Of a DNA stretch of 64,000 nucleotides, positions 52,507 through 63,747 are shown in pieces. Below the pieces are notes generated by a model. It ran no database searches and was not told the origin of the DNA. It saw nothing but the letters and a program-made list of their open reading frames with translations. A program made the position numbers and the translations under genes. This DNA is from Longimicrobiales bacterium. GTDB lineage: Bacteria > Gemmatimonadota > Gemmatimonadetes > Longimicrobiales > Gaopeijiaceae. Position 1 is the first letter of the stretch. Each line of letters starts with the position of its first letter. The stretch spans positions 3,520,001-3,584,000 of the forward strand of contig OZ250165.1 of assembly GCA_965238005.1 (NCBI GenBank), read 5' to 3'.

Positions 52507-53544
52507 GTGACAGTGTGCATCTTCTCGCAACCGGTCGAGCTGGTCTCCGATACCCACATCTTCGCCCGGGTCGCAAACGGGACGCAGTTCCTCGCCTACG
52601 AGATGAAGCTCTCCACACCCATGGAGAACGCCATGATCCTCCCCGTGCCCATAGCCCACGGGGCGGAGGAGGACGCCCTCGAGTTCATCAGCCTGGAGAA
52701 CTATCCCGACTTCTTCGATGACCTCCACGCCTTGTTCCCGGCCGAGAAGCTCGTCTCCGCCAGCCTGGACCTCGCCCTAGCCGCCTCGGCGACGTTGGCC
52801 GTCCACCGTGTCGGCTCGTTCGAGGCATCGTTCGTCCCCAGCATCTCGGACTTCAGCCGTCTCGACCCGCGCTTCAATCTCAGCCCCGAGGCCTGGGAGG
52901 CCCTGCCTCAGGTCCACGACTATGGATTCGCCGTGTTCCAGCTCGTGGCCGGTGAGGCCAGGTACGTCCATCCCATGGCTTTCAGCTTCCCCGCCCGCTC
53001 ACCGGATCGGATCGTGTTCCCGACCATCCATGTGCACGATGGAGAGGTCCACTCACAGGCCGACTTCGACCACAGACTCTTCTGCCAGCACGACGAGTTA
53101 CGGGAGATCCCGAGGGGCCAGGCACTTCCGAGCCTTCAGGGCTGGGGGGAGTCGTACGACCTTCCCGAGTCCTCCGTGGACATCTCCCGGACGGGAGGCC
53201 TCGTCGCCGAGGGCGAACGCTGCTACCGCATGACCATGTGGGGGACCTACGACAACGAGGACGTCACGGTGGACCTCAGCGCCATCCGCGCCGACGTGGC
53301 CAGCTTCTGGGAGAAACGAACGCAGGAGGAGAAGGAGATCGACGAGAGCAACCAGGCGATGACCGGGCTGCTCCAGGCTCTGGCTGCGGACGGGCTCACC
53401 TGTCCCAAGTGCGGACTGCACTCCCAGGGCTACAAGTTCCGCAGTCCAGAGCGTCCCGCAAAGGCCTATCTGATCTGCCAATCCTGCGGCCGGTCGTCGC
53501 TTCCACGCGACTTCGGCGGTTCCGACGCCAGCGGTTCGGCCTGA
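52507..53544 (+). CDS. hypothetical protein (DUF2330-like N-terminus) with C-terminal Zn ribbon
   Basis: NAMILPVP, VGSFEASFVP, GFAVFQL, HPMA, FPT.H.HDG; CPKC...CQSC. Confidence 0.65.
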   Translation: MTVCIFSQPVELVSDTHIFARVANGTQFLAYEMKLSTPMENAMILPVPIAHGAEEDALEFISLENYPDFFDDLHALFPAEKLVSASLDLALAASATLAVHRVGSFEASFVPSISDFSRLDPRFNLSPEAWEALPQVHDYGFAVFQLVAGEARYVHPMAFSFPARSPDRIVFPTIHVHDGEVHSQADFDHRLFCQHDELREIPRGQALPSLQGWGESYDLPESSVDISRTGGLVAEGERCYRMTMWGTYDNEDVTVDLSAIRADVASFWEKRTQEEKEIDESNQAMTGLLQALAADGLTCPKCGLHSQGYKFRSPERPAKAYLICQSCGRSSLPRDFGGSDASGSA

Positions 53545-53733
53545 GGTAGGCGGTGGAGGATCGGTGGGTTAGAGAAGCCTCAAGCCCGACAGAAGCCTCA
53601 AGCTCGGAGCAGGAACTACATCACCGTAGCGCCCCAAAATGCGTCGGGCCCCATTTGGGACTTCATGGCCTCGGCGAGCTCCGGCTGACCCCGCCGCCAG
53701 GTGATCCCAGCACGAAGGTTATTCCACCAGCCC

Positions 53734-53762
53734 TTGACTCTTCTCGGTTGATTCGGTTTACT
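53734..53762 (+). promoter_or_regulatory. putative sigma70 promoter of the his leader
   Basis: TTGACT-N17-TTTACT, 9 bp before the leader ATG. Confidence 0.5.
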
Positions 53763-53771
53763 CAGAGCGTC

Positions 53772-53843
53772 ATGAAAACCTCGACTCGACATCATCGGCA
53801 TCATCATCCGCTCACGGGCGGTTGGCTGGAGATGTGCACCTGA
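53772..53843 (+). CDS. hisL: his operon leader peptide MKTSTRHHRHHHPLTGGWLEMCT
   Basis: five CAT His codons within six codons, directly upstream of a terminator and hisG. Confidence 0.85.
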   Translation: MKTSTRHHRHHHPLTGGWLEMCT

Positions 53844-53875
53844 GTTGAGGATCACCTGACGATCTGAGCGCATCT

Positions 53876-53907
53876 GACGCCGGCCCTCCGAGGTCGGCGT
53901 TTTTTTG
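53876..53907 (+). terminator. attenuator terminator
   Basis: GACGCCGGCC...GGTCGGCGTT stem followed by a T7 run, about 45 bp before hisG. Confidence 0.85.
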
Positions 53908-53950
53908 TTCGCCCACCTCGGAGCTCCGGCACCGTCCAACGGAGCTCCAC

Positions 53951-54832
53951 ATGAGCCAAGACAACAGCGACAACGGCGACAGGCTCCGCCTCGGCCTCCC
54001 CAAGGGTCGCATGCAGGAAGCGGTCATGACGCTGCTGGCTGACGCCGGCATCAGAGTGACACCGAGCGCACGCGGGTACCGGCCCACGGTCTCGCTGCGT
54101 GCGTGCGAGGCAAAGATCCTCAAGCCGCAAAACATCGTCGAGATGATCGAGCTCGGCAGTCGTGACGTCGGATTCGCCGGCGCCGACTGGGTCGAGGAAA
54201 TGCGGGCCGACGTGGTCGAGCTCCTCGACACCGAGCTGGATCCCGTCCAGGTGGTTGCGGCGGCACCGAGGGTGCTCCTCGACTCCAACGAGCTCCCGGC
54301 TCGGCGCCTCGTGATCGCGTCGGAGTACGAACGACTCACCCAAGAATGGATTACGAGCCGCGGTGTCGACGCGGAGTTCGTCCGCTCGTACGGGGCCACC
54401 GAGGTGTTCCCGCCCGAGGACGCCGACGTCATCGTCGACAACACGGCCACCGGAAGTACCTTACGTGCCAACGATCTCGTCGTCGTGGACACCCTGCTCT
54501 CCTCGTCCACCCGCCTCTACGCAAGCCCTACGGCCATGGCCGATCCGGCGAAGAAAGGCCGTATCGAGGATCTCCGGCTGCTCCTGCAGAGCGTCCTCGA
54601 TGCGAGAATGCGAGTCATGATCGAGGTGAACGCCCCGGCGGACCGCCTCGACGCCGTGGTCTCGCTCCTTCCCTGCATGCGGGAAGCCACCGTGGCTCCG
54701 CTCTTCGGTAACAGTGGCTACGCGGTGAAGGCGGCGGTCCCGAAGGACCGGCTGCCCGAGATCATCCCTGCCGTGAAGGCGGCCGGCGGGTCCGACGTGG
54801 TCGTCACCTCGCTGTCCCAGATCGTCCCATGA
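53951..54832 (+). CDS. hisG: ATP phosphoribosyltransferase, long form
   Basis: LPKGR, D.G..G.D...E, ASEY, GATE..P, D.IVD...TG.TL..N.L; C-terminal regulatory domain. Confidence 0.95.
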   Translation: MSQDNSDNGDRLRLGLPKGRMQEAVMTLLADAGIRVTPSARGYRPTVSLRACEAKILKPQNIVEMIELGSRDVGFAGADWVEEMRADVVELLDTELDPVQVVAAAPRVLLDSNELPARRLVIASEYERLTQEWITSRGVDAEFVRSYGATEVFPPEDADVIVDNTATGSTLRANDLVVVDTLLSSSTRLYASPTAMADPAKKGRIEDLRLLLQSVLDARMRVMIEVNAPADRLDAVVSLLPCMREATVAPLFGNSGYAVKAAVPKDRLPEIIPAVKAAGGSDVVVTSLSQIVP

Positions 54833-56547
54833 GCGGCCGGCCCTCACTTCCGTCGACCTGGATTCCCAAGGATCCGTATCGGGGCCCCGGGCCTCGTGAC
54901 CCCGGCGTTATCAAGCTGGACGGCAACGAAGGAGCTGCGCCGTCTCCGAGCGTCCTGGCAGGGCTGGCCCAGGAGGACGTATCCGTTTTGCGGGATTACC
55001 CCGACCCACGGGGGCTCGAAGCAGATATCGCCGCTTGGCTCGGTGTGGATCCGGGACGTGTGGTGGTCACGGCCGGCGCAGACGACGCTCTCGACCGAGT
55101 CTGCCGCGCGTACCTGAGGCCCGGACGACGCATAGTCCTTCCTGTCCCGGCCTTCGAGATGATGTACCGCTTCGCCCAAGCCGCCGGAGGCGAAACGAAG
55201 ACGGTGCCGTGGGAGGGCGACTTCCCCACGGACGCGGTCATCGCGGCCCTGGACGACGGCGTCTCCGTCGTCGCAGTGATCTCACCCAACAACCCCACGG
55301 GCCGCGTGGCGACGGCAGACGACCTGAAGCGAGTGGCCGACGCCGCCTCCGGGGCCATCGTTCTCTTGGACCACGTCTACGTCGACTACGCCGATGAGGA
55401 TCTCACGGAGTTGGCCACAGGGTTCGGCAACGTGGTTACGGTTCGCACGTTTTCGAAGGCCTGGGGCCTGGCGGGATGCCGGGTGGGGTACGCCATCGCC
55501 TCAGAAGAGGTCGCCAACGTGCTCCGGAACGCGGGCACCCCTTTCCCCGTGGCCGGGCTCTCGATCGCCGCCGTGCGGGCGCAGCTCCAAGGAGGCCGAA
55601 CGCTGCTGGATGAGCACGTGAGTCGGATCCGTGGGGAGCGAGACGCGCTCGTGGACACCCTCGCCCGCCTCGGCGCCTCGCCTGCCCCGTCTCAGGCGAA
55701 CTTCGTCTTCGCCGACTTCGGCGAGCGCTCCGATCTCGTCTACGACGGGCTGGCGTCGCTGGGGATACGCGTCCGGCGCTTTCCGCATCGGCCCGAGATC
55801 AGAACCGGGATACGCATGACGGTACCGCAGGGCGTAGAGGAGATGGAGAGGCTTCGAGCCGGCCTGGACACGGTCCTGGCTCCCGAGGCGTTGCTCTTCG
55901 ACCTGGACGGGGTGCTGGCCGACGTCGAGGACTCGTATCGACGCTGCGTCCTGGAGACGGCCGGAAGCTTCGGGGTCCCGATCACCCGGGCGGACCTGGA
56001 GACGGCCGTGCTGGCGGGCGACGCGAACAACGATTGGGTGCTGACCCAGCGCATTCTGGAGGCTCGGGGCGTCGAGGTTCCCCTGGACGAGGTGACCGAG
56101 CGCTTTCAGGCGATCTACCTGGGCACGCCGCAGAAGCCTGGGCTCCGTGAGTCCGAGCGACTTCTCGTCGGTCGAGACGTGCTGGCGCGGCTGACGGCCC
56201 GCCTACCCCTGGGCATCGTCACCGGCCGCCCGAGGGACGAGGCCGTCTGGTTCCTGGAGAAGACCGGGATATCGGACCTCTTCGGAGCGGTCGCGTGCCT
56301 GGAGGATGCTCCCCTCAAGCCCGATCCTGAACCCGTGCGCGTTGCCCTCGCACGGTTGGGCGTCGAGCGAGCGTGGATGGTGGGTGACACGCCTGATGAC
56401 CTCCGGGCCGCCAAGGCCGCAGGAGTCCTTCCGGTGGGGATCGTGGCTCCCGAGGACGACCCCACCAACGCCGTTTCGGCCCTCCGCGACGCCGGAGCGG
56501 CCACCGTACTGGACGACGTCACCAATCTCGAGGAGCTACTCCCATGA
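54829..56547 (+). CDS. hisC: histidinol-phosphate aminotransferase fused to a HAD phosphatase
   Basis: LDGNE, YPD, SPNNPTG, RTFSKAWGLAG.RVGY, SQANF; then FDLDGVL, VTGRP, KPDP, VGDTPDD. Confidence 0.92.
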   Translation: MSGRPSLPSTWIPKDPYRGPGPRDPGVIKLDGNEGAAPSPSVLAGLAQEDVSVLRDYPDPRGLEADIAAWLGVDPGRVVVTAGADDALDRVCRAYLRPGRRIVLPVPAFEMMYRFAQAAGGETKTVPWEGDFPTDAVIAALDDGVSVVAVISPNNPTGRVATADDLKRVADAASGAIVLLDHVYVDYADEDLTELATGFGNVVTVRTFSKAWGLAGCRVGYAIASEEVANVLRNAGTPFPVAGLSIAAVRAQLQGGRTLLDEHVSRIRGERDALVDTLARLGASPAPSQANFVFADFGERSDLVYDGLASLGIRVRRFPHRPEIRTGIRMTVPQGVEEMERLRAGLDTVLAPEALLFDLDGVLADVEDSYRRCVLETAGSFGVPITRADLETAVLAGDANNDWVLTQRILEARGVEVPLDEVTERFQAIYLGTPQKPGLRESERLLVGRDVLARLTARLPLGIVTGRPRDEAVWFLEKTGISDLFGAVACLEDAPLKPDPEPVRVALARLGVERAWMVGDTPDDLRAAKAAGVLPVGIVAPEDDPTNAVSALRDAGAATVLDDVTNLEELLP

Positions 56548-57146
56548 CCCCGCGACAGGCCGTAATCGACCGCCGCACCAAAGAGACCGAGATCAGCGTT
56601 CGGCTGAATCTGGACGGAACCGGAGCCGCCGAGGTCGCCACGGGCATCGGGTTCCTGGATCACCTCCTGGACGCACTGGCGAAGCACGCCCGCTTCGACC
56701 TCGAGCTGAGCTGCAAGGGGGATCTCCTCATCGACGATCACCACACGGCGGAGGACTGTGGACTCACGCTCGGCACGGCGCTGCAGCAGGCTCTCGGCCC
56801 GCGAGTGGGCATCCGTCGCTTCGGCTACGCCTACGCCCCGCTGGACGAGGCCCTGGCACGGGCGGTGGTGGACATCTCGGGACGCCCGTTCGCGGACGTG
56901 AACCTGGGCCTTACCCGGGAGCGGCTGGGTGAGTTCTCGTGCGAGAACATCCCTCATGTCCTCAGCTCCCTTGCGTCCACGGCGGGTCTGACTCTCCACG
57001 TCGACGTGCTCAAGGGCGAGAACGACCACCACCGGGCGGAGGCGGCCTTCAAGGCGGTGGCGTTAGCCCTCCGGGCAGCCGTGGAAGCTTCGGGCTTCGA
57101 CGATGTGCCCTCCACCAAGGGGAGCCTGGGAGGCGTGGAGCCGTGA
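56544..57146 (+). CDS. hisB: imidazoleglycerol-phosphate dehydratase
   Basis: [41 protein letters not shown]. Confidence 0.96.
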
Positions 57147-58546
57147 GCCGGGTCGCCATCGTCGACTCCGGGGTCGCCAACCTCGCGTCGGTGAGGAGCG
57201 CCCTCGCCGCCGTGGGGGCGGACGGCGTCGTGACCCGGGAGCCCGACATCGTGCGCGAGGCGAGCCACGTCGTGCTGCCCGGCGTGGGCCGGTTCGAGGC
57301 CGGAATCGAGAGCCTGCGCGCGGACGCGCTGGATCGGGCGCTTCTGGACGTCCAGGAGGCAGGCACCCCCCTCCTCGCCATCTGCCTGGGAATGCAGATG
57401 CTGGGAGAGGGCAGCGACGAGAGCCCCGGCGTAGCCGGCTTGGGCATCTTTCCGGGGCGATTCGTCCGCCTGCCCTCCTCGGTGCGGGTCCCCCATCTGG
57501 GCTGGAACCGCGTCGAGGCGGACCCTTCGTCAATCCTGCCACCCGGCATGGCGGCCTTCGCGAACTCGTACTGCCTCACCGACGCCCCGGAGGGGTGGAG
57601 CGCGGCCTGGACGACGCACGGGGTGCGCTTCGTATCGGCCCTCACCAGAGGCCGGATCCTGGCCTGCCAGTTCCACCCGGAGCTGTCGGGTGACTTCGGC
57701 ATGGGGCTCCTTCTGGCGTGGCTCTCGGGGGAGTCGCCGGGCCGCGAGGTCCAGGAGGCAGCCACCCCAGGTACGGCACGGCCGACTCTCAACCAAGTGG
57801 CACGCCGCATCGTCCCTTGTCTCGACGTGAAGGACGGCCGTGTGGTGAAGGGCGTGCGCTTCCAGAACCTCCGCGACTCCGGGGACCCGGCCGAACAGGC
57901 CGGCCTCTACGAGCAACAGGGAGCCGACGAGATCGTCGTCCTCGACGTGGCGGCCTCACCCGAAGCGCAGGGGACCCAGCTCGACACGGTCCGTTCCGTG
58001 CGAGCGTGCCTCCACATCCCGCTTACCGTCGGCGGAGGGGTTCGCACGGTCGACGACGCGCGCAAGCTCCTGTCGGCCGGTGCCGACAAGGTGAGCGTCA
58101 ACACTGCCGCTGTCCGGGACCCGTCCCTCATCGAGCGGCTGGCCCAGGCGTTCGGGTCGCAATGCATCGTCCTGGCCATCGACGCTCGCCGGGACGGGGA
58201 CAGCTGGGACACGCTCGTGATGGGCGGTCGCGAGCCCACCGGGATGGACGCCATCGAGTGGGCCCGGGAGGGGACCCGCCTCGGCGCAGGCGAGATCCTG
58301 CTGACGAGCTGGGATCGGGACGGGACCAGGAGCGGCTGCGACCTCGAGCTGCTCCGGACCATGCACGATGCCGTGACCGTGCCAGTAATCGCGTCGGGCG
58401 GCATCGGCACGAGGAGCGACGTGGCAGCCGCCTTCCACTCCGGAGCGGACGCCGTCCTCGCGGCGTCCGTCTTCCACGACGGTGACCTCACCGTGGCGAG
58501 TATCAAGGAGTTCCTGAGCAGAGAAGGGGTGGTGGTACGGACATGA
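57143..58546 (+). CDS. hisF: fused HisH-HisF imidazole glycerol phosphate synthase
   Basis: LPGVG, ICLGMQ, PHLGWN, QFHPE; in-frame linker; [34 protein letters not shown]. Confidence 0.93.
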
Positions 58547-59880
58547 TCATTCCGAGTATCGACCTCATGGACGGACGGGCGGTCCAACTCCGCCGCGGGC
58601 GGGAGCTCGTCTTGGAGGGAGGCGACCCCTTCGAGCGTCTCGAGGAGTTCACGGTCGCCGGTGAGGTGGCTGTCGTGGACCTCGACGCGGCGCTTGGCAA
58701 GGGATCCAACGCCGGCGTGATGCGGGAGATGGTGCGGCGCGCACCCTGCCGGGTCGGTGGCGGCATCCGCGATCTCCAGACGGCCCTCGATTGGCTGGAC
58801 GCCGGAGCCACTCGTGTCGTCATCGGCACGGCGGCGTCCGTGGACTTCTGCTCGCAGCTTCCCCGGGAGCGCGTGGTGGCGGCTGTGGACGCGGAGGAGG
58901 GCACGGTGGTAGTGGAGGGATGGAGGACCGAGACGACGTTCCAGGTCATCGATCGCATGAGGGAGCTCGCCCCGGTCGTGGGCGGGTTTCTCCTCACGCA
59001 GGTGGAGCACGAAGGAGGGATGTCCGGCTTCAGCATGGAGCTCGTGGAGGAAGCAGTGGAGGCAGCGGGAGACGCCCGCGTGACCGCGGCGGGCGGCATC
59101 ACCACCGCGGAAGAGGTGGCAGCTCTCGACCGACTGGGCGTCGAGGCTCAGGTGGGGATGGCGCTGTACTCGGGCCACCTGACCCTCGGCGCCGCCGTGG
59201 CCGCCCCTCTGACCACGGGCATCGAGAGCCGACTCTGGCCCACCGTCGTGTGCGAGGAGTCCGGCGCAGCCCTAGGTCTGGTGTGGAGCACGCGAGAGAG
59301 CCTGGAAGCCGCAGTGTCACGGAGGCGGGGCATCTATTGGTCCCGCTCCCGCGGCGAGCTCTGGATCAAGGGCGAGACGTCAGGGGCCACCCAGGAGCTC
59401 CTTCGGGTGGACCTGGACTGCGACCGGGACGCCCTGCGCTTCACGGTCCGCCAACACGGCTCCGGATTCTGTCACACCGGAGAGTGGGCGTGTTGGCCGA
59501 CGGCGTTCACACTGTCCACCCTCGGAAGGGTGATAGAGGGGCGTCGGGGGGAGATCGGCTTCGGCGAGGGACCACTGGTGACAGGCGGCGGCTCCGTGGG
59601 TGGTGGGGAGTCGTCGGACAGGCGCGGCTCGGGTACGGCGCGCGTGTTGGCCGACCCCGAGCTGCTAAGGGCCAAGCTCCTCGAGGAGGCGGCGGAGCTG
59701 GCCGATGCCACGGACACCTCGAGCGCCACCCATGAGGCCGCCGACCTCATCTACTTCGCTCTCGTCGGTGCGGCCCGCCACGGCGTGGGCATGGAGGACG
59801 TACGCCGTGAGCTTGAGCGCCGGCATCGACGGGTCCGACGCCGTCCCATGGCGGCCAAGCCGGAAGGAGGAACGTCATGA
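58543..59880 (+). CDS. hisIE: fused HisA-HisI-HisE
   Basis: IIPSIDL, VDLDAA, VGGGIR; SRSR.ELW.KGETSG, DCDRD, FCH..C; K..EEA.E, EAADL.Y. Confidence 0.92.
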
Positions 59881-61136
59881 CCAAGAGCCTTCTTCCCCGT
59901 CGAGACCCCGAGGAATTCACGGCGGGCACCCCGGGCGCTATCTCCCTTGAGATCCAACGCGAAGCCGAGGTCATCGTAGAGCGGGTCCGAGCCGTCGGTG
60001 AAGCCGCCATCCGGGAGTACGCGACCAGGTTCGACGAGCGCAGCCCCGAGCAGTCCCTGTACATCACCCGTGACGAGCTGGGGCCCCAGCTAGAAGCGAT
60101 GGCGCCATCCGACCGCGAGCGCCTGAAGCGCATCGGAGGGCGCATCCGCGAGTTCGCCACCGCCCAGCGCAAAGCTCTCACCCCCCTCGAGGTGGACATC
60201 TCCGGGGGTACCGTGGGACACCGCATCGATCCGGTGGAGGCAGCGGGATGCTACGCCCCCGGCGGGCGCTATCCCCTTCCCTCCTCGGTGCTCATGACCG
60301 CCGTCACCGCCCGGGCCGCCGGAGTGGAGTCGGTTTGGGTCGCGAGTCCCCGACCCACGCCCATCACCCTCGCGGCCGCCGCCGTAGCCGATGTGGACGG
60401 AGTCCTAGCGGTGGGAGGAGCCCACGCCATCGCGGCTCTGGCCTTCGGGGTCGGGCCGGTGCCTCCAAGCGATGTGGTCGTCGGTCCGGGGAACCTGTAC
60501 GTGAACGCGGCCAAGCAGCTCTTGGCCGGCGCCGTGGCCATCGACATGCTGGCCGGCCCGTCGGAGCTCGTGATCATCGCGGACGGATCGGCAGATCCGG
60601 CCTGGATCGCCGCAGACCTCCTCGCCCAGGCGGAGCACGATCCCGAAGCCGTGCCGATCCTGATCGCGATGGACCCGGCTCTTATTACCGCGGTCGAAGC
60701 GGAGCTGAGCACCCAGCTCGGCGACCTCCCCACCGCCGATACCGCTCGTACCGCGATATCGAAAGGGGGCGTCATCGCCTGTCCCAACGTCGAGGAGGCG
60801 GCCCGGGTGAGCGACGCCATCGCGCCCGAGCACCTGCAGCTGTCCGTGGCCGATGCCCGTGACTTGGTGCCTCGCCTCAACCACTACGGCGCCCTCTTCA
60901 TCGGGGAAAGGAGCGCCGAGGTGTTTGGCGACTACGGAGTCGGTCCAAACCATGTGCTCCCAACGTCGGGGACGGCCCGGGCTCGGGGAGGTCTTTCGGT
61001 CATGGACTTCCTGCGAGTGCGTACCTGGATTCGCCTGGACCAACCCGGTCCATCTCGCGAGTTGGTGGAAGATTCGGCGTGGCTGGCCAGGCAGGAGGGG
61101 CTGGAGGCCCACGCGCGAGCCGCGGAGCTTCGGTAA
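59877..61136 (+). CDS. hisD: histidinol dehydrogenase
   Basis: Y.PGG...PSSVLM, GPGN.YV, IDM.AGPSE, DLLAQAEH, APEHL, GDY..GPNHVLPT. Confidence 0.96.
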   Translation: MTKSLLPRRDPEEFTAGTPGAISLEIQREAEVIVERVRAVGEAAIREYATRFDERSPEQSLYITRDELGPQLEAMAPSDRERLKRIGGRIREFATAQRKALTPLEVDISGGTVGHRIDPVEAAGCYAPGGRYPLPSSVLMTAVTARAAGVESVWVASPRPTPITLAAAAVADVDGVLAVGGAHAIAALAFGVGPVPPSDVVVGPGNLYVNAAKQLLAGAVAIDMLAGPSELVIIADGSADPAWIAADLLAQAEHDPEAVPILIAMDPALITAVEAELSTQLGDLPTADTARTAISKGGVIACPNVEEAARVSDAIAPEHLQLSVADARDLVPRLNHYGALFIGERSAEVFGDYGVGPNHVLPTSGTARARGGLSVMDFLRVRTWIRLDQPGPSRELVEDSAWLARQEGLEAHARAAELR

Positions 61137-61182
61137 GGCTCGCCCGGTACGCTATAATTGATGGATCCTCAAAGGAGACTTC

Positions 61183-62241
61183 ATGAAGCGATCGGTGGTG
61201 GCGCTGGGCTCTATCCTCCTCGGCTCCATAGAGCCTCCGTCAGCAGCCCGGGCTCAAGAAGGCCCGTGGGGCCTTACGGCGGTCGAGGGGATCGCGGTCG
61301 GACATCACACCCTGAGCGAGAGGCCCACCGGCTGCACCGTGATCCTGACCGGAGAGGGTGCGGTCGGAGGAGTGGACGTCCGCGGCGGCGCGCCTGGCAC
61401 GGTCGAGACCGATCTCTTGGATCCGGTGAATTCCGTGCAGGAAGTCCACGGCATCATCCTCTCCGGCGGCAGCGCCTTCGGGTTGGCTGCCCGAGACGGA
61501 GTCATGCGCTACCTGGACGAGAAGGGCATCGGATACCGCATGGGGTCCATCGTGGTACCCATTGTGGTCGGTGCTATCCTCTACGATCTCCCTGTGGGGG
61601 ACGACCCCGGTGTTCGTCCGGGCGCCGAATGCGGATACCAAGCGGCCACCCGGGCCACCGCGGACACGCCCGCCGAGGGGAATGTGGGAGCCGGTGCCGG
61701 AGCGACGGTAGGGAAGCTGAGGGGCATGCGGCGTGCCATGAAGGGTGGGATTGGGACCGCGTCGATTACACTGCCCAGTGGCCTCACGATCGGAGCAATC
61801 GTGGCGGTCAACGCGGTGGGCGACGTCATCGACCCGTCGACGGGTGCGGTGATCGCCGGAGTCCGTACAGCCGACGGCCGGGGCCTCGCCGACGCCCGGG
61901 TGCTGATGCGGGAGGGCCGTCCGTCGAACGAGCCCCAGAGCGGGGCCAACACCACCATCGGGGTCGTCGCCACCAACGCCGTGCTCACCCAGGCCCAGGC
62001 AACGAAGGTGGCGCAGATGGCGCAGGACGGCTTCGCCCGGGCGATCTATCCCGCGCACACGACGGGCGACGGGGACACGGTCTTCTCCCTGGCCACCGGC
62101 ACCTTCAACGGCGCGGCGGCCGTCTCCACCGTCGGAGCCCTGGCGGCGGACATGGTCGCCGAAGCCATCTTACGGGCCGTGAGGGCGGCCACCGGCATCG
62201 AGGGGATTCCCTCCGCCTCGGACCTCAACGCCGGCCGGTGA
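61183..62241 (+). CDS. P1/S58 (DmpA-like) aminopeptidase
   Basis: DVRGGAPGT.ET, LSGGSAFGL, GNVGAG.GA, NTTIGV.ATNA, HT..DGD..F. Confidence 0.9.
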   Translation: MKRSVVALGSILLGSIEPPSAARAQEGPWGLTAVEGIAVGHHTLSERPTGCTVILTGEGAVGGVDVRGGAPGTVETDLLDPVNSVQEVHGIILSGGSAFGLAARDGVMRYLDEKGIGYRMGSIVVPIVVGAILYDLPVGDDPGVRPGAECGYQAATRATADTPAEGNVGAGAGATVGKLRGMRRAMKGGIGTASITLPSGLTIGAIVAVNAVGDVIDPSTGAVIAGVRTADGRGLADARVLMREGRPSNEPQSGANTTIGVVATNAVLTQAQATKVAQMAQDGFARAIYPAHTTGDGDTVFSLATGTFNGAAAVSTVGALAADMVAEAILRAVRAATGIEGIPSASDLNAGR

Positions 62242-62358
62242 CGTGGGCGCTCCCGCGCCTCCAGGTGATGCACGGTGCGCGCCGCCCTAAGAGTCCAAGC
62301 CGCCCCGTGACGCACACCGGTCGTCTCGCCCCATGACCCCCGAGACCTCGGCCCGCCC

Positions 62359-63747
62359 GTGAACCTCGAGCTGGTAGTCCTAGTGGTCTACTCGGCCATC
62401 CTCATCGGGCTCGGCCTGTGGATTGGCCGGCGGGTGGAGAGCAGCGGGGGCTTTTTCGTGGCGAACCGCAAGCTCGGTGCAACGCTCATCTTCTCCACCG
62501 TGCTCGCGGCCAACATCGGTGCGGGCAGCACCGTGGGGGCCGCTGGGCTCGGCTACCGGGACGGCTTGGCCGGGTGGTGGTGGGTGGGCTCGGCCGCCGT
62601 CGGCACGCTGATCCTGGCCCTTTGGATCGGACCGCGAATCTGGCGGATCGCCGCGGAGCACGGCCTCTACACCATGGGGGACTACCTGGAGCTCCGATAT
62701 GGCCGGTCCGTTCGCGCGGCCATCACCGGCCTCCTGTGGCTCGGCACCCCAGCGCTCCTGGCGGCCCAGCTCATCGCCATGGCCAAGATCCTGGAGTTCG
62801 TGGCGGGGGCGCCCGAGTGGGCCGGCGTCCTCATCGGCGGGGTGGTCATGACGGCCTACTTCACGGCCGGCGGGCTCCTTACGTCCGCGTGGGTCAACAT
62901 GGTCCAGCTCGTGGTCCTGGTGCTCGGCTTCGCGGTAGCCCTGCCGTGGGCCTGGGGAGCGGTGGGCGGTTGGGGGGGCGTGGTGGCCGCCGCGCCCCCA
63001 TCCGGAGATTATTTGGACTTCTGGCAGGGAGGTCGCTCCGGCTGGATCTACCTGGCGCTCCTCGGGCCGAACTTCATGGTCTCGCCGGGACTCGTCCAGA
63101 AGGTATACGGAGCCGTAGACGAACGCGCCATCCGCCTGGGCCTCGGAGCCGCGGCCCTTGCGTTGCTGGTCTTCGCAGTGGTCCCGCCCCTCTTAGGAAT
63201 GATCGCCCGGGTCTACGACCCGGCCCTAGTGGACCGGGAGCATGCCCTGATGCTGGTCCTGACTGCCGGCCTTCCCACGCTTCTCGGGAGCGTGGGCCTG
63301 GCGGCGGTCTTCTCCGCCGAGATCAGCTCGGCCGACGCCATCCTCTTCATGCTGTCCACTTCCCTGTCCAAGGACCTCTACAAGCGCTTCCTCAGGGCCG
63401 ACGCCGATGACGGACAGGTTCTAAACGTCGCCCGTGGTGCGGCTCTCGCTGGAGGGAGCATCGGCATGCTTCTGGCGCTGGTGCTGCCGTCGATCATCGA
63501 CGCCCTCACCATCTTCTACTCCCTGATGGCCGTCTGCCTCTTCATCCCGGTGGTGGCGGGGCTCTACGCGCGCCGGCCCGGAACGCCGGAGGCCCTGGCG
63601 GCCAGCGGGGTGGGCGTTGCAGCCCTGATCACCGTGGAGCTGGCGGACTTCACGGACCCATTCCCGTGGCTGAACTCCACCTTCCTCGGGATCGTGGCGT
63701 CGGCGCTGGCCTTTGGCTTGGTCTTCCTGGTGCGCCGCCCTTCCTAG
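62359..63747 (+). CDS. sodium:solute symporter (SSS)
   Basis: FFVANR.LG, AANIGAGS, Y...GGL....W, A..SSAD; about 13 TM. Confidence 0.92.
   Translation: MNLELVVLVVYSAILIGLGLWIGRRVESSGGFFVANRKLGATLIFSTVLAANIGAGSTVGAAGLGYRDGLAGWWWVGSAAVGTLILALWIGPRIWRIAAEHGLYTMGDYLELRYGRSVRAAITGLLWLGTPALLAAQLIAMAKILEFVAGAPEWAGVLIGGVVMTAYFTAGGLLTSAWVNMVQLVVLVLGFAVALPWAWGAVGGWGGVVAAAPPSGDYLDFWQGGRSGWIYLALLGPNFMVSPGLVQKVYGAVDERAIRLGLGAAALALLVFAVVPPLLGMIARVYDPALVDREHALMLVLTAGLPTLLGSVGLAAVFSAEISSADAILFMLSTSLSKDLYKRFLRADADDGQVLNVARGAALAGGSIGMLLALVLPSIIDALTIFYSLMAVCLFIPVVAGLYARRPGTPEALAASGVGVAALITVELADFTDPFPWLNSTFLGIVASALAFGLVFLVRRPS

Follow-up and report, generated by a model that had tools for sequence, protein, structure and literature searches.

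Fungal HIS4 carries an N-terminal domain, HisI, HisE and HisD on one chain. In the part of Fani et al. 2007 (PMC1963479) drawn on here, its N-terminal region of 160–220 residues was left "of unknown function", CDD and PSI-BLAST having found nothing, and a HIS4-like protein was not found in prokaryotes. Fusions of HisA with HisIE, as well as amoebal mega-fusions, are already in print. In the part of Witek et al. 2021 (PMC8102479) drawn on here, bacterial fusions of PRA-PH with both PRA-CH and ProFAR isomerase, identical in domain content to the gene described below, are assigned to Gammaproteobacteria and Spirochaetia, whereas the crown group found in this study includes other phyla; there, fungal HIS4 and plant HISN2 lie near HisIE of the Myxococcales type in a similarity network, and no link between the fungal N-terminal region and HisA is made. 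The same HisA-HisI-HisE core is shared by the heptafunctional His protein of Acanthamoeba (1682 aa; Rice et al. 2018, PMC6029752), compared by its description in part of that paper, and by a Protostelium protein (P0342), an intact HisA-I-E-D-HisC-HAD chain, although both chains are eukaryotic and far larger than the one described here. A literature search returned no paper naming the His4 N-domain a dead HisA, while domain databases may already list the fold.

In the window, meaning the whole 64,000-nt stretch of DNA analyzed, nt 58543–59880 of the plus strand form one ORF of 445 aa that encodes HisA, HisI and HisE in a single polypeptide. Pfam assigned His_biosynth to residues 1–213 (PF00977, 146 bits, well above the cut-off of 23.6), PRA-CH to residues 246–318 (PF01502, 91.2 bits) and PRA-PH to residues 363–428 (PF01503, 46.0 bits), the latter two both above cut-off and in the I-then-E order of bifunctional HisIE. 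The domains correspond to nt 58543–59217 (HisA, ProFAR isomerase, residues 1–225), 59278–59496 (HisI, PR-AMP cyclohydrolase) and 59629–59826 (HisE, PR-ATP pyrophosphohydrolase), and are followed by a His4-type tail at residues 430–440. The next gene, hisD (nt 59877–61136, plus strand; Histidinol_dh, PF00815, 434 bits), is separate and overlaps the end of the fusion by 4 bases at the junction TCATGA, its ATG start sharing these bases with the TGA stop in a different frame. The original prediction regarded HisA-I-E followed by hisD as a mirror of His4; as an exact mirror this fails, the four parts not lying on one chain in the window. Its further remark that a single HisA-I-E-D chain was only one frameshift away was borne out by the close relatives P0121–P0123, in which such a chain exists, with IE 64% to 68% identical to that of the window and a linker of 20–30 residues in place of the stop/start overlap.

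The his operon at this locus is compact and translationally coupled, with ten activities on six genes, all on the plus strand. It begins with a long-form hisG (nt 53951–54832; HisG 115.6 bits and HisG_C 66.9 bits; TIGR00070, 140 bits), followed by a hisC-HAD fusion whose HAD hydrolase, of the TIGR01548 type, is a candidate histidinol-phosphate phosphatase (nt 54829–56547; Aminotran_1_2 at residues 33–335, HAD at 353–533; TIGR01548 135.7 bits, below the cut-off of 140.2). This HisC-HAD pair also closes the mega-fusions in Protostelium and P0279, and the hisC-HAD gene of the window is the counterpart of the tail of the Protostelium chain. Next are hisB, encoding imidazoleglycerol-phosphate dehydratase only (nt 56544–57146; IGPD 202.5 bits, NF002111 248 bits), and a hisH-hisF fusion (nt 57143–58546, the start being approximate, near 57143–57149; GATase at ORF residues 74–250 and His_biosynth at 290–517; TIGR00735 320 bits, TIGR01855 159 bits). 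A special kinship of the latter with eukaryotic HIS7 was considered and rejected, bacterial HisF scoring 313 bits versus 194 bits for yeast 1jvn. Upstream of hisG, a His-rich leader peptide ORF was read at nt 53772–53843 (plus strand; MKTSTRHHRHHHPLTGGWLEMCT, with five CAT codons among six), and similar peptides precede hisG in G011 and G001. Between leader and hisG, nt 53876–53908 (plus strand) form a terminator-like hairpin with a T run (10-pair stem, 7 GC pairs) that is part of the minimum-energy fold of nt 53770–53915 (z -2.4). Leader and hairpin together are likely an attenuator. Rfam gave no match at gathering score anywhere in the window, leader included, and no sigma-70-like promoter was found within nt 53300–62400.

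The fused HisA retains D7, GGGIR at residues 72–76, D116 and G184-G185, which align to D, GGGVR, D and GG in E. coli HisA. Among 111 fused bacterial HisA domains, D7 was present in 108, and GGGIR, D116 and G184-G185 in every one. We take D7 and D129 (Salmonella numbering) to be the two catalytic Asp of HisA, and the two Gly loops to bind phosphate. Across 15 fusions, C293, C310, H311, C317, D292 and D296 of HisI, as well as E381, E382, E385, E398 and D401 of HisE, were invariant or at least 90% kept; the Cys and His residues of HisI are presumably metal-binding and the acidic residues of HisE of the EExxE type. The single polypeptide would thus perform the HisE (PR-ATP to PR-AMP), HisI (PR-AMP to ProFAR) and HisA (ProFAR to PRFAR) steps, and may channel substrates between them. 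Both halves appear divergent, since the fused HisA (148.8 bits) missed the TIGR00007 equivalog cut-off of 229 and the fused HisIE (112.9 bits) the NF002747 cut-off of 187. As ordinary HisA of relatives score 183–246 bits with the former model, one might suppose that the HisA domain of the window is inactive or in another role, ProFAR being isomerized by a separate enzyme. This is very improbable: a PF00977 search of the complete 4.84-Mb genome, which holds the whole his pathway, returned the fused protein as the only HisA, HisF as the sole other match above cut-off and two further weak matches (21 bits), and all catalytic and phosphate-binding columns examined are kept in 108 to 111 of the 111 fused domains. 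An active HisA domain is the reading adopted here.

The HisIE part was predicted to be of the His4 type and unlike typical bacterial HisIE, and both identities and trees agree with this. All six motifs named in that prediction were located, namely LGLVWS (244), GIYWSRSR (263), DCDRDALRF (292), GFCH (308), EAADLIYF (398) and the tail (430–440). The yeast strings given in the earlier work were here compared with fungi other than S. cerevisiae: among 33 named fungal His4 proteins, GFCH was found in 32, EAADLxYF in 28, the GxYxSRxR form in 20, the DCDxD..F form in 15 and LGL[VA][WY]S in 14, while a consensus built from 24 fungal His4 proteins has LGLVYSS ... GVYQSRKRGLWYKG ... GFCH ... RRPGNAKP. 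Ordinary HisIE (E. coli hisI and those of 12 Gemmatimonadota relatives) share with the fusion both catalytic domains and their order but have no HisA ahead; none of these 13 proteins had the His4-type motifs, and they lack the C-terminal tail after HisE that is common to the window, fungi and Protostelium. Judged from these sequences, the sharing of motifs with fungal His4 is not due to chance. The window IE is 44% to 52% identical to fungal His4, compared with 32% to 42% to ordinary HisIE of the same family or order and 32% to E. coli. In the careful IE tree of 92 rows, the window falls with fungal His4 and apart from ordinary bacterial HisIE, inside a His4-type clade of 79 rows (support 100/99) made up of bacterial HisA-IE and HisA-IE-D fusions and eukaryotic His4-type proteins; within it, a clade of 34 rows holds the eukaryotes (99/95). 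The ordinary HisIE of G004 (L007) was excluded from the trees, its IE match being split.

On these comparisons, the window gene appears to belong to a distinct and widespread bacterial HisA-HisIE lineage, of which many members are further fused to HisD. At least nine bacterial phyla have the fusion inside a his operon, and the crown group includes Gemmatimonadota, Planctomycetota, Myxococcota, Bdellovibrionota, Acidobacteriota and others. The best 150 representatives out of 1.84 billion proteins were all of the His4-type IE; 46 of them showed IE alone, those looked up being fragments or non-fungal eukaryotes. A search for shorter HisIE gave 120 matches (45% to 64% identity), most of them on contigs of about 1–3 kb and likely fragments, while about ten on contigs of 26–284 kb look truly unfused.

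Fungal HIS4 resembles the window gene also in having a barrel of about 200 residues ahead of HisI, and the suggestion that this N-domain is a relic HisA barrel was upheld. With hhalign, fungal N-domains matched the fused-type HisA profile, from which P0174 and P0204 had been excluded, at a probability of 97.8% to 98.2% (E 6e-14 to 1e-12), colinearly (1–225 against 1–191), and the match persisted with the last 25 residues removed (E 1e-10), versus E 0.03–0.9 for controls; the HisD control profile included truncated proteins, which makes that control conservative. The match was specific, with E about 1e-13 for fused-type HisA versus 3–6e-5 for ordinary HisA and 4–5e-4 for HisF, and the fused-HisA HMM alone gave 30 bits on basidiomycete N-domains. 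In 33 named fungi, IE begins at residue 171–252, the same offset as behind a 225-residue HisA. AlphaFold2, run on 18 fungal N-domains only, predicted eight strands alternating with helices (pLDDT 91, pTM 0.88). A HisA-like fold was thus recovered in the structure comparison proposed earlier, as VIA-align ranked only HisA or PriA at positions 1–19 (Z 18.2–17.4, rmsd 2.4–2.6, about 183 of 211 residues), but in Foldseek, the program named for it, the first match was an HpcH aldolase. HisF and ribulose-phosphate epimerase also came within 1 Z of HisA in VIA-align, so that an identification as HisA cannot rest on the fold alone.

The likeness could accordingly be convergent or generic, some other TIM-barrel domain standing ahead of HisIE; the aldolase match, the many barrel families at Z of about 17 and the Pfam result, in which PF00977 matched none of the 18 fungal N-domains at E up to 1 and only nine single-member chance matches appeared, would be in keeping with this. 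Such an origin is nevertheless extremely improbable, given the specificity of the profile match to the fused type, the clean controls and a position and length equal to those of HisA. In addition, L85, G88 and R110 were present without exception in the 33 fungi and the 111 bacteria, although the R110 column is Ala in E. coli HisA, and intermediates are known. Homology to the HisA domain of the window is therefore the reading that profile and model comparisons support. In the fungal N-domain, D7 was kept in 12 and D116 in 4 of 33 fungi, and GGG was lost. Bacteria and Protostelium have an intact barrel; it is half-decayed, as an intermediate state, in Salpingoeca, and decayed in a choanoflagellate and all fungi examined, a distribution from which the region "of unknown function" would be a catalytically dead HisA barrel, devoid of catalytic and phosphate-binding residues.

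The HisD part has a different history, and here the supposed correspondence with His4 broke down. The window HisD grouped with the D domain of fused P0121 (support 100) in the HisD tree. A clade of 44 rows (100) comprised ordinary HisD of relatives and a fused-type D clade of 31 rows (100) containing the window HisD together with every fused bacterial D domain; fungal D fell outside. Uniting fungal D with the D of Arcella, Protostelium, Hartaetosiga and P0204 was rejected (AU p 7e-73), and the best PDB match of fungal D was plant HDH (497 bits, versus 262 for the window type). Because the fungal HisD domain belongs to a different type that resembles plant HisD, fungal His4 would be a chimera, in which a relic HisA and a HisIE of the fusion lineage were joined to a plant-like HisD; the window instead has an intact HisA barrel and a separate hisD. 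Owing to this different history of their D, 18 fungal rows were kept out of the concatenated A+IE+D tree.

The eukaryotic HisIE of this lineage come from fungi, amoebae, choanoflagellates and a diplonemid; the eukaryote clade also takes in rows P0204, P0318 and P0359, and for Protostelium and Arcella both IE and D lie within the clades of the window. The operon type had been proposed as the source or sister of fungal His4. This was not sustained, the window being placed in a Gemmatimonadota subclade (99) of the named-genome IE tree, several nodes from the eukaryote clade; by its placement, it would be a cousin of fungal His4. The direction of transfer is weakly resolved. Four maximum-likelihood trees (two IE, one D, one A+IE+D) nest eukaryotes inside bacterial fusions, with moderate SH-aLRT of 81–92, and below the eukaryote-containing crown of the named-genome tree, bacterial HisA-IE fusions split off as a ladder (Aminicenantes, Eubacteriales, Treponema, Lysobacterales, Gastranaerophilales). 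The opposite course, a fusion born in eukaryotes and then acquired by bacteria, would make the window gene a descendant of a eukaryotic His4-like gene; in the part of Fani et al. 2007 (PMC1963479) drawn on here, that direction was proposed for the HisHF fusion of HIS7. It agrees with the fact that forcing all 47 bacterial HisA-IE rows to be monophyletic was not rejected on IE alone (delta lnL 8.1, AU p 0.41; the clades of both AU tests were chosen after the trees had been seen), with the backbone of the careful IE tree, a polytomy, the concatenated A+IE+D backbone likewise being without firm branching, and with the patchy occurrence of the fused type in the family of the window (4 of 17 relatives with a HisI match), a pattern that fits transfer. 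Against it are the nesting and the ladder, the presence of the fusion in so many bacterial phyla and a barrel that is decayed in opisthokonts yet intact in every one of the 111 bacteria, and we regard this course as unlikely. Reception of the fusion by eukaryotes from bacteria is what we infer from these trees.

It is thus highly probable that the window gene is a member of the HisA-HisIE lineage translationally coupled to hisD, that the fungal N-domain is a dead HisA and that fungal His4 is chimeric. A fuller history, which we favor slightly, would derive fungal HIS4 from a bacterial HisA-HisIE(-HisD) fusion passed from a Myxococcota- or Planctomycetota-like donor to an early amorphean, with the opisthokont HisA dying but persisting as a structural pseudoenzyme for about a billion years, and the fungal HisD being swapped for a plant-like one. 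The barrel would have died because HIS6, which we take to be the separate eukaryotic HisA, did the work. If this history is true, the joining of non-consecutive steps in His4 goes back to an ancestral fusion of three consecutive ones, steps 2, 3 and 4.

Taken by itself, the window gene is unexceptional within its family of fused histidine enzymes, which is common though poorly annotated, and its value lies in comparison. The bacterial fusions supply the profile that identifies the N-terminal region of HIS4 as a probable dead HisA barrel; they may account for the union of non-adjacent pathway steps in HIS4 and point to its chimeric nature. The fungal N-domain would then be a further case of a pseudoenzyme domain retained over very long times.

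The histidine genes of the window formed an operon of six genes on the + strand, with stop/start overlaps of 4 bases between genes. As identified by Pfam and NCBIfam, they encoded HisG (nt 53951-54832), a HisC joined to a TIGR01548-type HAD hydrolase (54829-56547; 135.7 bits, slightly below the cut-off), the dehydratase part only of HisB (56544-57146), HisH and HisF in one gene (57143-58546), a HisA-HisI-HisE fusion (58543-59880) and HisD (59877-61136), the sequence at the junction of the last two genes being TCATGA. The HisC-HAD pair also terminates mega-fusions of Protostelium (1501 aa) and of the homologous protein P0279 (1586 aa), which suggests that the HAD domain supplies the missing histidinol-phosphate phosphatase. 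The hisH-hisF gene was arranged as in eukaryotic HIS7; by PDB scores, its product resembled ordinary bacterial HisF more than yeast His7. The leader region (53772-53908, + strand) contained an ORF of 23 codons with 5 His codons in 6 (MKTSTRHHRHHHPLTGGWLEMCT) and, after it, a GC-rich hairpin and then a T run, 43 bases upstream of hisG; it resembles a leader-peptide attenuator for the his genes, here in a Gemmatimonadota-like genome. An Rfam search of this region gave no match; similar His-rich peptides occurred upstream of hisG in two related genomes, G011 and G001. Directly upstream of the leader lay a 345-aa ORF (52507-53544, + strand) without a Pfam match at E 0.001.

In the 445-aa fusion, Pfam placed His_biosynth (HisA) at residues 1-213, PRA-CH (HisI) at 246-318 and PRA-PH (HisE) at 363-428. 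The coordinates, domain order and six quoted motifs of the original prediction were all correct. A glycine-rich low-complexity insert separated HisI from HisE (residues 325-362; nt 59515-59628), and the IE part exceeded that of the homologue P0121 by about 18 residues. Two proteins exceeded the PF00977 cut-off in the single-contig 4.84 Mb genome, the other being the HisF part of HisHF; thus the fused barrel is the only HisA of this genome. The catalytic and phosphate-binding columns examined were well conserved: D7 was kept in 108 of 111 fused bacterial HisA domains, and GGGIR, D116 and G184-G185 in 111 each, all aligning with their counterparts in E. coli HisA; D7 and D116 are the catalytic pair. 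The HisI metal-binding Cys/His and the HisE acidic residues were invariant or nearly so among 15 fusions. Both halves of the protein were divergent (TIGR00007, 148.8 bits versus a cut-off of 229; NF002747, 112.9 versus 187).

The HisA-I-E gene type is common: PF00977 and PF01502 were found in all of the best 120 homologues of similar length, and PF01503 in 118. Among 21 related genomes, 17 had a HisI match, 13 of these with ordinary unfused HisIE and the fused type only in the window's genus (G000-G002) and G011. Curated-model scores in these four were 147-157 bits for HisA and 400-434 for HisD, versus 183-246 and 459-550 in relatives. The fused type is a distinct lineage, patchily spread among close kin. 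Close loci (49-66% identity), named by the labels on species-representative genomes, came from Gemmatimonadota, Myxococcota, Planctomycetota/Phycisphaerae, Bradymonadales, Bdellovibrionota, Acidobacteriota, Alphaproteobacteria and Bacteroidetes, and remoter HisA-IE fusions from Treponema/Spirochaetia, Eubacteriales, Aminicenantes, Lysobacterales and Gastranaerophilales.

The HisIE part proved to be of the His4 type rather than the ordinary bacterial one, as had been predicted. In the careful IE tree (92 rows, 202 columns), a His4-type clade of 79 rows was split from 13 ordinary HisIE with support 100/99, and the window IE shared 44-52% identity with fungi, versus 32-42% with the ordinary HisIE found in the same family or order and 32% with that of E. 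coli. The best 150 representatives among 1.84 billion proteins were all of the His4 type. A search among longer proteins, with the IE part as query, matched 33 named fungal His4 (40-49% identity, with about 95% of the query covered) as well as bacterial HisA-I-E-D chains some 850 aa long, a HisA domain being present in 82 of the 120 matches listed. A 34-row clade (99/95) held all 18 fungi, Arcella, Protostelium, two choanoflagellates and one diplonemid, and no row known as bacterial. In P0339, P0343 and P0359 (853-911 aa; choanoflagellate, diplonemid and a relative), about 450 residues without a Pfam match preceded the HisA-IE module.

The single chain from which hisD was said to be one frameshift away does exist, since the close relatives P0121-P0123 join the two genes through a linker of 20-30 residues and the D of P0121 grouped with the window HisD (100). 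The supposed mirroring of His4 by hisD failed in the D tree (63 rows). All bacterial fused-type D domains, that of the window included, fell with those of Arcella, Protostelium, Hartaetosiga and P0204 in a 31-row clade (100), itself within a 44-row clade (100) that added the HisD of ordinary relatives; the 18 fungal D domains (99) lay outside both. Forcing fungal D together with other eukaryotic D, a group named after the tree had been seen, cost 137 log-likelihood units (AU p 7e-73). Among solved structures, fungal D matched plant HDH best (497 bits versus 262 for the best window-type match), and Protostelium and window D showed the reverse preference. Fungal His4 is therefore a chimera.

The suggestion that the His4 N-domain is a relic HisA barrel was borne out. 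In 33 named fungi, the IE part starts at residue 171-252, which is where a HisA of 225 residues would place it. Profiles of 111 fused bacterial HisA domains and 33 fungal N-domains matched colinearly from the first strand to the linker (probability 97.8-98.2%, E 6e-14 to 1e-12), also without the last 25 residues (E 1e-10), while controls gave 0.03 (HisD), 0.19 (IE), 0.54 (reversed) and 0.44-0.88 (five column shuffles). At equal depth, the match was specific to the fused type (E 3e-13 to 2e-12, versus 3-6e-5 for ordinary HisA and 4-5e-4 for HisF). With the HMM alone, basidiomycete N-domains reached at most 30 bits; with the Protostelium barrel alone, scores reached at most 24 bits. Pfam matched none of 18 fungal N-domains, in agreement with the HIS4 passages of Fani et al. 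2007 (PMC1963479), in which no homologue was found, the N-region is unexplained and no HIS4-like protein is recorded in prokaryotes. Our search of the literature found no paper equating this domain with HisA.

AlphaFold2, given the Podila N-domain and an alignment restricted to 18 fungal N-domains, predicted eight strands alternating with helices (pLDDT 91, pTM 0.88). Foldseek matched this model to HisF, HisA and HpcH aldolase (E about 1e-6). By VIA-align, places 1-19 were all HisA or PriA (Z 18.2-17.4; about 183 of 211 residues superposed at rmsd 2.4-2.6), with HisF no more than 1 Z behind; fold by itself therefore does not decide for HisA. D7 remained in 12 and D116 in 4 of the 33 fungi, and the GGG loop and W127 were gone: the fungal barrel is dead. 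L85, G88 and R110 persisted in all 33 fungi and all 111 fused bacterial domains (the residue aligned with R110 in E. coli is Ala), a hint that a structural contact may have been preserved. There are also transitional forms: in Protostelium the HisA-I-E-D-HisC-HAD chain (1501 aa) is intact (PF00977, 144 bits), and the Salpingoeca barrel is half-decayed. P0134 (822 aa), with IE and D parts among bacterial fused-type rows and an N-domain of about 180 residues in which an HMM search found no HisA match, may be a second, independent barrel decay.

In a quick IE tree that also took in named genomes (87 rows), HisA-IE fusions were all on one side (SH-aLRT 94), with bacterial fusions diverging successively below a 56-row crown (98). 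Within this crown lay the eukaryote clade (20 rows, 92), adjoining Myxococcota, Planctomycetota and Acidobacteriota rows (81-89). The window fell elsewhere, in a Gemmatimonadota subclade (99), and the proposal of its operon type as source or sister of His4 was wrong. Non-fungal eukaryotes were also nested among bacteria in the D tree and the concatenated A+IE+D tree (42 rows, 850 columns; supports 83-91). The IE data did not reject a topology uniting all 47 bacterial rows (delta lnL 8.1, AU p 0.41), and movement of the fusion from bacteria to eukaryotes is rated as fairly probable. Witek et al. 2021 (PMC8102479), in the part concerned, describe fusions that unite the three activities and locate HIS4 and HISN2 close to Myxococcales, and the corresponding part of Rice et al. 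2018 (PMC6029752) describes a heptafunctional Acanthamoeba chain that includes HisA-I-E-D. The window fusion is a real, ordinary member of an already known kind of fused enzyme, and would be trifunctional, covering pathway steps 2, 3 and 4, with presumed activity and channelling.
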